Assembly (NCBI GenBank): GCA_027263115.1
Contig: GCA_027263115.1_3656.1
Source: a phage
Strand: one strand, 5' to 3'
DNA: 64,000 nucleotides
Of the stretch, positions 39,097-49,416 are shown piece by piece. Within the stretch, counting starts at the first letter, position 1, and each line of letters begins with the position of its first letter. Below the pieces are notes generated by a model. It had not been told where the DNA came from. It worked only from the letters and a program-made list of their open reading frames with translations, and ran no database searches. A program made the position numbers and the translations under genes.

Positions 39097-39720
39097 ATGA
39101 CCACCGTTAACATTACCACAGGTTGCAATTTATCTTTCGACGTGCTGACCGACGAACAAAAAGAAAAAGCTATTGAAATGGTCCGCGAAAGAGAAGAACA
39201 CAGCGGAGAGGATTTTTTCGCAGAAAGTGTAATTGAATATTATAAAGAACAAGTTTTTCCAGAGTACGGCCTTGAAGATACCGATGTACATTGGTCCGGC
39301 TTTTGGTGCCAGGGTGACGGCGCGTCAATCAGTGCTGAAAACGTGGATTTAGAAAAATTCTTGCGTAAAGTAAAGGCCCTGACCAAGTTCCGATCAATTC
39401 GTCACTTGTTTGGCACAATGCACGATGGCGAGTTATCAGCCAGTATTGAACGCGACAAGTACAGCCATTACAGCCATGAAAACACTGTAAGCGGATACAT
39501 TGATACCACCTGGCTAGATCTGACCGCCAAACAAGAAAACAAAGTGGAAGACCTGGAAGAGCTGATCACCGAGACGGTACGGGAGCTATCCCGCAAGGTT
39601 TACGTAGACCTGGAGGAGGCCTATCTAGAACAGTTCACTACCGAAAACCTGATCGGCCTTATTGAGGCCAATGATTGGCGGTTTGATGTGGATGAATATG
39701 GAGAGATGAGTTTTTCATAA
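39097..39720 (+). CDS. hypothetical acidic protein
   Basis: 207-aa ORF with CAGGAGA RBS. Confidence 0.55.
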   Translation: MTTVNITTGCNLSFDVLTDEQKEKAIEMVREREEHSGEDFFAESVIEYYKEQVFPEYGLEDTDVHWSGFWCQGDGASISAENVDLEKFLRKVKALTKFRSIRHLFGTMHDGELSASIERDKYSHYSHENTVSGYIDTTWLDLTAKQENKVEDLEELITETVRELSRKVYVDLEEAYLEQFTTENLIGLIEANDWRFDVDEYGEMSFS

Positions 39721-39809
39721 ATAAAGTGTTGCAATAATCTAAAAACCTGCTATATTAAAACTCAAGGGGGCAAGACGTTTGCCCCACACAAAACAAAGAG
39801 GAAAACATT

Positions 39810-45757: not shown

Positions 45758-45806
45758 CTTTTTTAAAGGGAAGTTGTAAGAAAATTAACTAAGAGGTAAA
45801 AACACC

Positions 45807-46226
45807 ATGAACATTAAATCTAATAATCCGGCATATAGCTTTGATAACGCTTTTTGTCACGGTCCGGCGGCGAAAGGATTCGAAATCGATGGTAAACTAA
45901 TTATTGTCAATGTTGACGGGGAAGAGGTTGCAGTATATCCGGTGGCAGACGTAAAAAGCCGTTTACAATGCCGCATTGATGTTACCGCCTATCAGCTTGA
46001 TCCGGTCCGCATAGTTGCCCTGGTCCTGGAAGAAGAAATTAAAGCCATGCACCATAGCAACAGGTTTATTGGTGACGCTCAGGATAATATGAAGGTGTGC
46101 CGCCATAAAGTTAATGAAGTGCTTAAAGAGTACGGCTATAAAGATCTTATGATCAAACGTGATGAAAAATTCCGGTACCGTAACGACCTGGCAAATCGAA
46201 TCTATGAAATATACGAATCATTATAA
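45807..46226 (+). CDS. hypothetical protein
   Basis: 139-aa ORF with AAGAGG RBS; last gene of the rightward block. Confidence 0.55.
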   Translation: MNIKSNNPAYSFDNAFCHGPAAKGFEIDGKLIIVNVDGEEVAVYPVADVKSRLQCRIDVTAYQLDPVRIVALVLEEEIKAMHHSNRFIGDAQDNMKVCRHKVNEVLKEYGYKDLMIKRDEKFRYRNDLANRIYEIYESL

Positions 46227-46244
46227 TTTTTTAACTGAATTATC

Positions 46245-46269
46245 AAGGGGCTTAGGCCCCTTTCTTTTT
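46245..46269 (+). terminator. intrinsic terminator
   Basis: aaggggc-ttag-gcccctt hairpin followed by TCTTTTTG. Confidence 0.7.
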
Positions 46270-46880
46270 GTCTGATCTTCCCCCTACCATAAACGGCCCT
46301 ACCTGGCAAGTGGAATAATTGACGAGCCATCAACCCCACACACTGTACAAATATACATGTAAAATAACTATTGCATAACTTTTCATTGTGTGGTAGCAGG
46401 GCTATTTTTACCCGTTTTTCCTTCCAAAATTGCACGTAATGCAGCTATTGCACAAAATTTAACCTGATGCATATCTTCAGTGTCTTGTCAACAACTAAAA
46501 ATCTTTATAAGTCATGCACTTACATAACCACAAAAGCGTGCTCTACGTGAAAAATCGAGTATAACTATAGCCGCCAGATCTCAGAATTTACGTACGCTCA
46601 CCATTCTATAGTCTGCTAAGTATTTATTCCAACCATAGAATAACGGAATAGTCAATACCTGCATAAAATAATTATTCGTGTAAACTGCATAACATAAATC
46701 AGCTTAGGTGTCAACATTTTTCGTAAACAGTCTGAAATTATCACGATGAGTTATCATAAACAGAGAAATCTTTAGTCGTCTAATGTTTACTGTACGTTAC
46801 TATACTAACTGAAATCATTAGATGACTAATAGAAAGATAAGAAATAATTAACAATACAATTATTTTATCTGTAACAATAA

Positions 46881-47166
46881 GGCAACTATGCAAACGAATG
46901 GCATGGCGCGACGGAGTCGCGACATAATATAAAAGCAGTAACCATCACCCCCGTGATAGTTTGTCTGCAATCTATTAATCAGATCATAGTTGCCTTGTAT
47001 TTAGTTAATCATGACATAACAAGCAAGGCAACTATAGATCTGCTAATAGTTGCCCTGCTTTTATATTATGTCATAGGAACGCCCGAAGGGGTGACCTAGT
47101 CACCTGGCATAGCCAGCGAAAGATTATTAACTTGGTAATAGTTATCATGCAAACGAATGGCATGGC
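46881..47166. repeat. nested inverted-repeat structure flanked by 20-bp direct repeats
   Basis: direct repeat atgcaaacgaatggcatggc at 46888 and 47147; 18-bp inverted repeat gacataatataaaagcag (46921) vs ctgcttttatattatgtc (47055); 12-bp inverted repeat atagttgccttg (46986) vs caaggcaactat (47024). Confidence 0.6.
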
Positions 47167-47177
47167 TTATCATCTCT

Positions 47178-47300
47178 GTGTAAACAGTCAATCATGTAAA
47201 CTATTAGATATGTAAACAGTAAAGGGCGTGAACAGTAAGCGAGGGAATAGTAATAGCGTGAATAGTGACAGCGTAAACAGTGACAGCGTAAACAGTCAGG
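47178..47300. repeat. iteron-like GTAAACAGT repeats
   Basis: at least six copies of GT(A/G)AA(C/T)AGT, including two tandem 15-bp units gacagcgtaaacagt at 47267-47296. Confidence 0.6.
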
Positions 47301-47400
47301 CATGTCAATTATGTCATATTGTGTCACCATTATGTCACTATTGTGTCACCAGTATGCCCAGTATGTCAATTGAGTCTAAAGTGTCAAAGGTGTCAGACAA
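47301..47400. repeat. 10-bp-periodic TGTCA tandem array
   Basis: about ten units (catgtcaatt, atgtcatatt, gtgtcaccat ...) each containing TGTCA or a near variant at helical-turn spacing. Confidence 0.6.
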
Positions 47401-47859
47401 GTTTTTCTCCTCTTTGTCAAGTGCTGCATGAAAAATTTACAAGCTTGTATGGTAGCATTTTTGCGGCCCGTTTACATTCAGTGATGTATGTATAACCCTT
47501 GTTGTGTGGGAGTTTAGACGTCTAGACGGTTGGAAGTCTGCAGGTCAATATCTAATCTATCGGCTGCTAACTATATCCCACACAAATAGTAAGAAATATA
47601 ATTGTTATATGTGTAAACAGTAACTCATGTTATCAATCCCTGTATGGATCGCCAGTGGTGCGCATAATGGGTATTATGTTAAATTGCCCGTAATGATAAC
47701 AGTTCTCACAATGATAGGTATTCTCATTCATCCACACAAAATAGGTTGCAAATGTTGTGCCACTGTGTGAACGGCCTGGCCTATTAATTTCTCTCACTGC
47801 CTCGATATTTGAGGATTGTTATAAGAATGAGAAGTATTCCCATTCCGTCCGCCTGGCAG

Positions 47860-48180
47860 CGCTCCTGTAGGTCCTGCAAGGACTCTAGCTGAAAGCTAGA
47901 CCCTTCGGGCCTCCCTGTAGGTCAGGTCAAAATCGTGGCAGAACTGAGCCTGTTCAGATATTTCTGGCTGACTCTTCAGGTCTGTGTGGGAAAAGCCAAC
48001 CTCTCCGGCGGGGCAGGGGAGGGAGGTAAATTAAAAAATTTACGTGGTGTATGAAGCGCTCTTCAGGTAAGGCAGGTATTATGTGATGAAACCCTCTTCA
48101 GGCAATGATATTTGTGGGTGTGATATTTGCTGGAAAGCCAGATATGACGGGACTCCCGGCGGGGCAGGGGTAGTACAGAC
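47860..48180. repeat. G-rich direct repeats
   Basis: CCGGCGGGGCAGGGG at 48004 and 48155; CCTGTAGGTC at 47864 and 47914; CTCTTCAGG at 47972, 48059, 48094 (also 48508 and 49156). Confidence 0.5.
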
Positions 48181-48866
48181 GGGGGAAATATGGGGATGTA
48201 GTTGGGGAAATTGATCAGGCAGGTAGAGTATGGAATATGTTACAAGTATGTTAAATATGGAGGTTGAATATCTGTAGGATTTGTGTGTAAAATCAAAGAC
48301 TTAAGTGGTGTTGTGGTATTTTCTATAAATAATTCAAGTTTAATAGGTAATATTTGCCTCTATCCACTTTGTGTGGTAAACAGATTCAGATGAGATTAGT
48401 TTACAAGTGTATACATAATATACAAATTAAAGATACAAGAAACCCCCCTCCCCCCTTCGGCTACCATTCACCTTTTCCTCTGACTGGTACTTAAACACTT
48501 ATTCAGACTCTTCAGGTTATCACCCATATATCATATGGCAGTGACTGGTGTCCTCCGGCCCCTCTTTCGTCACCCGTCCGCTTCGCCATGCTAATGCCAT
48601 AGCTAATGGTTCGGTTGTTCACCCTGTTCACTCAGGTGTATCTCTATACCCCTTCAAACCGAAGAGAACAGAAAACCCGAATTACTCGGTAAAAGAAAAG
48701 AGAAGAACTTAATTTTATCAGGATAGGCAAGAATGTCAAGGCATGACTGCTCACTAAACAAGCAAACAGTCATGTGTGGGAGGTAAGTGATTGTGGTGGT
48801 AGGAAATTTAGTTGAAAGATGTGTTATAGGTGCTTCCAGCACTTTAGCCGGGCAGCTAATTGTGTG

Positions 48867-49082
48867 TCAGTCCAGCGGTTCATCCTCTACTTCACTGAAA
48901 TCAATGTTCATGGTCTCTTCCCAACCATCGATCTCAGCACAAGAGTGGAGTTCTTTAGGGTTTACTCCCAAAGCCTCAGCAACAGAGTCTATATTTAACA
49001 CCTCTGGCAGGTATGATTCATCGAATTCAAGGTAAATCAGGCCACGAGTGTTGTCAGCTCCACCAAATATCTCTATCTTCAT
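48867..49082 (-). CDS. small acidic protein
   Basis: 71-aa ORF, last gene of the leftward block. Confidence 0.55.
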   Translation of the reverse strand: MKIEIFGGADNTRGLIYLEFDESYLPEVLNIDSVAEALGVNPKELHSCAEIDGWEETMNIDFSEVEDEPLD

Positions 49083-49203
49083 AAAATCTCCTCTGGGAAT
49101 GAAAGTGTGAACAGGGTTTTATACGTTCTAATGCACAGGAATTATACACGTTTGCCTCTTCAGGCCATGCTTTAGCATGAGGAACCTGTGTGGGCTCGGT
49201 GCT

Positions 49204-49416
49204 TCATAGTCTACCACCTCTGAACTCTTCGTGCTCAGGCATAATAGAGAACCAGATATCTACGATGTCCTCCCACGTCAGGTCATCAGCCTCAGGATCT
49301 GTCTGGGACGAAGATGAAGAGTCCTCAGAATCTAAGTTTTCCTCTTTAACTGGCTCATCCAAGGGACATATGGTCACTCCTTCGGATGTCTCTTCAGATG
49401 CATGTGTGTTGATCAT
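49204..49416 (-). CDS. small acidic Ser-rich protein
   Basis: 70-aa ORF. Confidence 0.5.
   Translation of the reverse strand: MINTHASEETSEGVTICPLDEPVKEENLDSEDSSSSSQTDPEADDLTWEDIVDIWFSIMPEHEEFRGGRL

Follow-up and report, generated by a model that had tools for sequence, protein, structure and literature searches.

What holds a compact nest of inverted and direct repeats in place in a gene-free region of a phage genome? The question is raised by positions 46881-47166 of a 64,000-nucleotide stretch of phage DNA (contig GCA_027263115.1_3656.1, one strand, 5' to 3'), which we call the window. The window belongs to an rV5-like coliphage of the genus Vequintavirus, and about 120 GenBank records are 90-99% identical to it. 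A first interpretation made from the letters alone (the sequence-only reading) had described the element as cruciform-capable nested inverted repeats bounded by 20-bp direct repeats, and had offered two explanations: an inserted miniature inverted-repeat transposable element (MITE) with its target duplication, or a symmetric protein-binding site such as an origin or resolution site. Our analysis points instead, with a probability of roughly 0.45, to a conserved non-coding DNA cis element at the junction between genome copies, which would serve packaging or end processing. The element appears to be undescribed, in that no paper we found describes it, and would belong to an already known kind, the genome-end and packaging signals of phages.

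The element lies inside a stretch of about 2.6 kb without open reading frames (ORFs; 46227 to about 48830), flanked by convergent gene blocks. On the rV5 genome map this stretch is the grey 'non-coding' box between genes 163 and 164 (Kropinski et al. 2013, PMC3606486); the box is a label only, and that paper says nothing of motifs, inverted repeats, box arrays or a connection with the genome ends. Our searches of the literature on rV5, BASEL and Septuagintavirus phages found nothing on the element either. We checked for, and rejected, a coding sequence, which the sequence-only reading had named as evidence against its interpretation: no ORF at the element exceeds 48 amino acids, the overlapping ones span just 30-48 amino acids, and the indels of relatives are not multiples of three. 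There are no tRNA or tmRNA genes in the window.

The repeats named by the sequence-only reading are all present where it placed them. The 20-mer ATGCAAACGAATGGCATGGC occurs on the + strand at 46888-46907 and 47147-47166, and these are its only matches in the 64 kb even when three mismatches are allowed (chance expectation, 0.01). The 18-bp perfect inverted repeat (IR), with arms GACATAATATAAAAGCAG and CTGCTTTTATATTATGTC at 46921-46938 and 47055-47072, is the sole perfect IR of at least 14 nt with a gap of at most 300 across the window; the longest seen in 200 block shuffles of the window was 15 nt. Just inside the left arm is a small hairpin, AACCATCAC-CCCC-GTGATAGTT (46940-46961), followed by an inner quasi-palindrome (46962-47054) that holds a 12-bp perfect IR (46986-46997 and 47024-47035) and four AAGGCAACTAT boxes of alternating orientation; boxes of this type were located at 46879 (+), 46986 (-), 47025 (+) and 47046 (-). 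The short palindromes gcgcgacggagtcgcg (46906-46921) and ggtgacctagtcacc (47090-47104) were also recovered. Either single strand of 46884-47075 folds as one long branched hairpin with a z-score of about -10, so that the element is indeed capable of forming hairpins and a cruciform. The direct repeats are real, but they do not bound the IR: the left 20-mer ends 13 bp before the left arm, and the right one starts 74 bp after the right arm.

Conservation in this region is uneven. In an alignment of 12 Vequintavirus phages, the block 46875-47074 is 96-100% identical, against 84-97% for the remaining non-coding DNA to the left. The segment from 47075 to 47400 is full of indels and copy-number changes (identity, 0-0.7), and conservation returns abruptly at 47400. 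The hypervariable part includes a filler at 47076-47146 that is replaced or deleted in relatives, with a conservation profile of 0.33-0.73.

Relatives outside the genus were reached by starting from a neighbouring gene encoding 139 amino acids, which led to phAPEC8-like and Septuagintavirus-like phages and then to others. Each of these relatives has 1.5-2.6 kb of ORF-free DNA, bordered by convergent gene blocks in all but the phAPEC8-like phages, whose downstream genes are on the same strand. When the ORF-free regions of the other genera were compared with the window by BLAST, no similarity was found except for one short core. This core, GGCGCGAC..GCGACA, is 20-22 nt long, and at least six rV5-like lineages have it as a single copy per genome. 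In the window it reads GGCGCGACGGAGTCGCGACA (46905-46924, +), the Vequintavirus form of the genus-general 22-mer GGCGCGASCGNAGSGAGCGACA; it includes the palindrome gcgcgacggagtcgcg, and its start is overlapped by the 3' end of the left 20-mer. The core is found in the same ORF-free region of Vequintavirus, the Septuagintavirus-like phages A73 and W70, Avunavirus Av-05, Seunavirus PVP-SE1 and EspYZU15, Mydovirus KPP-1, Pseudaeromonas phage KLEP7 and 10 IMG/VR contigs, with only a diverged equivalent in phAPEC8-like phages. Within IMG/VR it is confined, as a single copy, to contigs of 83-148 kb; the looser pattern TGGCGCGACN{4,10}GCGACA returned only unrelated GC-rich matches there. Directly upstream of the core, the composition profile shows an AT-rich tract (46600-46880; GC, 0.29-0.31), and a similar tract occupies the equivalent place in PVP-SE1, Av-05, KLEP7 and the diverged vequinta-like contig L018. 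Readings of the core as a sigma-54 or a tRNA-like element were dropped after inspection by eye.

The core is joined to a pairing constraint. In every lineage the last GACA of the core is the start of a perfect IR of 16-21 bp, whose arms are separated by 73-188 nt. The arms differ by lineage, even among close Seunavirus-like contigs, yet they remain perfectly complementary. Across 11 distinct sequences of shared ancestry (18 pairs, 198 pair cells), the IR pairs are 99% Watson-Crick, as opposed to 28-53% when the partner is slid. Double changes affect 11 of the 18 pairs and one-sided changes none; no cell contains a G-U or G-T pair, and the observed covariation values were reached in 0 of 500 shuffles. 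This pattern indicates that the IR is under selection for pairing. Since wobble pairs are absent, the constraint would act on double- or single-stranded DNA, or on both strands together, rather than on one RNA. The small hairpin inside the left arm behaves in the same manner, its sequence differing between lineages and its stem being kept in every one: GATAA/TTATC, GCGA/TCGC and CGATA/TATCG in Seunavirus-like sequences, CTCAATA/TATTGAG in KLEP7 and AATAACAC/GTGTTATT in L018.

The direct repeats also change as a set. The two flanking repeats of L018 have one and the same sequence, ATGCAACGATAACATGGCGC, which differs from the 20-mer of the window; this looks like concerted change and not independent decay. 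In Seunavirus and Mydovirus the equivalent sequence, TCGTTCGCGTnATCGTGG, is again present twice, the first copy directly before the core and the second inside the IR loop. From these two observations we infer that the 20-mers are not a target-site duplication but two copies of a functional box, the first of them fused to the core. Further boxes link the IR to the DNA on its right. The outer 8 nt of the right arm, ATTATGTC, are the first direct copy of the box ATTRTGTC, and those of the left arm, GACATAAT, are the same box inverted; this is the unit of an array, ATTRTGTC(AC), that runs on the + strand with an 11-bp period from 47308 to 47395. Six of the 11 exact ATTRTGTC matches in the 64 kb fall within 46921-47347. 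The box variant shifts with the genus, jointly in the arms and in the extra copies (ATTATGTC, ATTGTGTC or ATAGTGTC), as expected of binding sites for a putative co-evolving protein. Between the right 20-mer and this array is another, with five copies of GTRAACAGT at a 15-16-bp period (47179-47296, +). Extra copies are found at 46723 and 47613, and copy number differs among relatives. The wider pattern GTRAACWGT has 10 matches in the 64 kb, seven of them inside the ORF-free region and all of these on the + strand; GTRAACTGT is also seen in non-coding DNA of PVP-SE1 and EspYZU15, and in KPP-1 between the IR and the terminal repeat.

The position of the element relative to the genome ends can be read from phages with published termini. 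Korf et al. reported terminal redundancies of 458 bp for the vequintaviruses EdH4 and HdK5 and of 328 bp for the phAPEC8-like phage Schickermooser (PMC6563267). A 459-bp terminal repeat has been published for Gotham (PMC7471380), and KPP-1 has a 514-bp terminal repeat (116316-116829) with T7-type packaging according to PhageTerm (PMC9862379). The HdK5 record carries a 459-bp repeat at both ends that maps to window positions 47396-47853 at 94% identity. The 11-bp array extends right up to this boundary (..GGTGTCA/GACAAG.., the slash marking the border), and the repeat begins with GACAAGTTTTTCTCC immediately after the last TGTC box, exactly where the indel-hypervariable zone (47075-47400) stops. 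The terminal repeat of Schickermooser opens with a similar sequence, AGCAAGTTCTCTT. By homology to HdK5 the physical genome ends are probably inside the window. Virion DNA, in the orientation of the window, would then run from 47396 around the genome to 47853, which would put the element just inside the right end. In Vequintavirus, Mydovirus and Phapecoctavirus alike, core, IR, gap and terminal repeat follow one another in a constant order and orientation. The gap, counted from the right IR arm, spans some 320 bp in the window and some 200 bp in HdK5; for KPP-1 and Schickermooser it is 309 bp and 209 bp, respectively. Many GenBank records begin or stop within about 1 kb of the element. Several vequintavirus records are linearised elsewhere or described as circularly permuted.

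A packaging or end-processing signal would account for these observations as follows. The substrate would be the joined genome copies that replication produces as a chain. Core and boxes (the 20-mer, AAGGCAACTAT, GTAAACAGT and ATTRTGTC) would bind the packaging or end-processing machinery, presumably terminase and accessory proteins, and the strictly Watson-Crick palindrome would extrude or fold back, giving a DNA hairpin or cruciform, while the DNA is being cut or the terminal repeat duplicated. Of the symmetric protein-binding site put forward by the sequence-only reading, the conserved DNA-level cis element with repeated boxes is broadly upheld; its tie to the genome terminus speaks against a resolution site. 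Several points weigh against a packaging signal. The element is distant from any terminase gene identified. A replication origin would be expected to look very similar. Circular permutation has been assigned to rV5-like phages in older papers and by one PhageTerm run (PMC8407724, PMC3475682). If their assemblies are correct, the propagated phage FV3 is without the whole unit and V18 is without the right 20-mer and the GTAAACAGT array. Lastly, the likeness to phage T7 discussed below is one of layout only, sequence homology being absent. In V18 the equivalent of 47100-47390 is missing and a run of 12 T with a few TGTC boxes is found instead, either a true deletion or a homopolymer assembly problem.

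The main rival is a replication origin, which might be coupled to the genome end; it may not be exclusive of a packaging signal, and we consider it unlikely. The arrays would be initiator iterons, 46600-46880 the unwinding tract, and the palindrome a hairpin that forms once the DNA is unwound. The two short direct-repeat arrays with periods of 11 bp and 15-16 bp, the adjoining tract of 29-31% GC and the strictly Watson-Crick covariation all agree with such a role. So do three perfect DnaA boxes, TGTGGATAA, within 40 bp of the same non-coding region in L018 (5845-5884), probably inside its terminal repeat, and the skew changes that the rV5 authors noted at 104425-105475, inside this region (PMC3606486). 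A fourth, relaxed DnaA box is located at 6029 of L018. The window, however, has no DnaA-box cluster, and no initiator gene was identified beside the element, none of the 10 flanking ORFs having a Pfam domain. Gene orientation around the region is convergent, not divergent, parts of the region are missing from FV3 and from V18, and an origin does not predict that distance and orientation to the terminal repeat should stay constant. Iteron origins (lambda ori, P4 ori/crr, plasmid oriV) likewise have clusters of direct repeats at approximately helical spacing with an AT-rich tract, and palindromic origins (herpes simplex virus oriS and oriL) have palindrome arms with inverted copies of a repeated box; the element differs from both in having no identified initiator, a position fixed relative to the genome end, and viable relatives without parts of it. 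A role at the RNA level, either as two face-to-face intrinsic terminators sharing the 18-nt A/T-rich arms as a bidirectional stop or as a structured non-coding RNA of about 150-190 nt, seems to us quite improbable. On both strands of the window a hairpin is followed by the shared T-rich arm: there is a terminator-like hairpin with a T-run on the - strand at 46961-46925, and a hairpin at 47021-47060 followed by TTTTATATTAT, which is annotated as a terminator in phage Murica. A bidirectional terminator was expected here, and not found, by the rV5 authors (PMC3606486). The folding score, applied to RNA, is about -10 for both strands, the near-invariant block stops right after the T-run at 47075, and two stem mismatches are C.A on the + strand and G.U on the - strand. 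Yet the gene blocks already have terminator-like hairpins of their own at the edges of the non-coding stretch (46245-46262 and 48689-48677), and the stems are A/U-rich, with one loop of 10 nt. Other genera do not conserve the U-run: what follows their hairpins is not U-rich, and their loops are 73-188 nt. An RNA would not explain the absence of G-U from all 198 pair cells, the extra boxes, the core outside the stem or the link to the terminal repeat. Rfam 15 gave no match in 45800-49400 at E-values up to 1, and no convincing promoter was found; a search by eye and by scan for a sigma-70 promoter of a small RNA yielded weak candidates only. An analogy with the pseudo-ToxI of PhiTE was also rejected, as the phiTE locus is in a different region, near tRNAs and terminase.

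Least credible, and in our view essentially refuted, is the MITE-like insertion of the sequence-only reading, or one derived from IS200/IS605 (as in palindrome-associated transposable elements, PATEs), with the 20-mers as its mark. Its best argument is FV3, which has exactly one 20-mer and none of the intervening 239 bp, the precise configuration of an empty site. The alignment with related phages that the sequence-only reading had proposed does not bear out an insertion. In a junction query of about 120 records the one-copy configuration is unique to FV3, whose closest relatives YP-6, ECP2303 and SYGMH1 all carry the unit, and the single 20-mer of FV3 bears the G-to-T variant found in the right-hand copy of SYGMH1 and EPFV3. 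Because the relatives are filled and the variant is that of the right copy, FV3 looks like a deletion between the direct repeats, or a loss of the long palindrome in cloning or sequencing, and not like an ancestral empty site; long palindromes are prone to loss in E. coli. Two further observations could favour mobility, namely the resemblance of the core to the left end of an IS200/IS605-family element, described below, and a 44-bp sub-module that has moved or been copied in one relative. Against it, the window and each relative have just one copy of the unit, which keeps its synteny from genus to genus and is under purifying selection; the 20-mers do not abut the IR, and the repeat copies evolve in concert in L018. 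No transposase was found in the window or the phage loci, a tblastn search with TnpA was negative, and the unit is absent from 5,426 E. coli genomes, with only weak 50-nt matches to the variable module; a host MITE or repetitive extragenic palindrome (REP) was rejected on this ground. In being a short non-coding hairpin unit, with one relative in the one-copy configuration and a core resembling one IS200/IS605-family left end, the element is similar to MITEs and PATEs; it departs from them in its single copy, synteny, lack of target-duplication geometry and of a transposase, and function-like covariation.

The genus-general 22-mer GGCGCGASCGNAGSGAGCGACA also matches bacterial genomes. For about half of these matches, which are single and come from very GC-rich genomes, chance could be the explanation. 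In a Eubacteriales metagenome-assembled genome (L177, 1740-2062), the 22-mer is at the left end of a multi-copy element that is inserted just after terminators and encodes an IS200/IS605-type transposase; a TnpA fragment follows the 22-mer. It is also present in a REP-like repeat of Nocardioides and in intergenic DNA of Kaistella, Chryseobacterium and other Bacteroidota. The 22-mer alone is common to these bacterial taxa, and Rfam has no family at the motif in the bacterial loci. The occurrences at an IS200-family left end and in REP-like repeats leave a slim chance of kinship to single-stranded DNA hairpin ends, in which case core and hairpin would be a single-stranded DNA recognition module of the IS200/IS605 or REP-end kind, taken over for phage end processing. 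If true, this would be a mechanism of end formation and packaging unlike those described for tailed phages.

Some features of the region are recorded here in their own right. The variable filler contains a 44-bp module of three small hairpins, GCCCGAAGGGGTGACCTAGTCACCTGGCATAGCCAGCGAAAGA (47080-47123), whose presence varies among relatives. An IMG/VR vequintavirus has the module again, 100% identical and inverted, beyond the non-coding region, where it lies upstream of a gene on the - strand (L012, 1164-1207); small E. coli plasmids give weak 50-nt matches to it. Mini-hairpin cassettes of a similar kind ('GCATAGCC') are inserted in SYGMH1 and in rV5, where the insert measures 33 bp and sits in the IR loop. 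Within the right half of the non-coding region, which is G+C-rich, there are four copies of CTCTTCAGG on the + strand (47972, 48059, 48094 and 48508) out of six in the whole window, and this motif also occurs in the non-coding regions of FV3, L018, PVP-SE1, EspYZU15, A73 and KPP-1; a second motif, CTCCGGCGGGGCAGGGG, has two copies at about 48003 and 48155. A near-consensus sigma-70 promoter (TTGACA, 16-nt spacer, TG, TAAAAT; 11 of 12 matches) at 48739-48712 on the - strand aims leftwards into the non-coding region, and the terminator-like hairpin at 48689-48677 lies about 20 nt downstream of it. Finally, 19 unannotated GenBank records (MG0656xx) of 'Campylobacter phage' with C. jejuni as the host are 93-96% identical here to E. 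coli rV5-like phages, and have the appearance of coliphages that were either mislabelled or contaminants.

Defining the cis signal would be of practical benefit. The rV5-like myoviruses are widely used as therapeutic and biocontrol phages, and such a signal would open the way to packaging-competent plasmids and transducing particles for this group and would guide genome engineering as to what must stay undeleted. It would also account for the costly ORF-free region of about 1.5-2.6 kb that all these phages keep. The Watson-Crick covariation across subfamilies yields a testable prediction on the pairing of the arms.

The closest parallel to the proposed packaging or end-processing signal is the genome junction of T7 and T3, which comprises the terminal repeat, the flanking short-repeat arrays SRL and SRR, pacB and a hairpin-forming IR to the left of the repeat. 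Processing in T7 reportedly needs pacB and passes through a hairpin intermediate. To our knowledge, detailed accounts of packaging and end-processing signals in phages with short terminal repeats hardly go beyond T7 and T3, and our literature search found no description of such a signal for rV5-like myoviruses. Both T7 and the rV5-like phages have a short exact direct terminal repeat, and the order inside the right end is the same: in T7 an imperfect IR (39568-39608) and a short-repeat array (39606-39730) precede the terminal repeat, which starts at 39778. The phages studied here differ from T7 in being myoviruses of about 137 kb, and their IR is of longer range, with perfect arms of 16-21 bp around an interior of 73-188 nt, and is joined to a conserved core of 20-22 nt.

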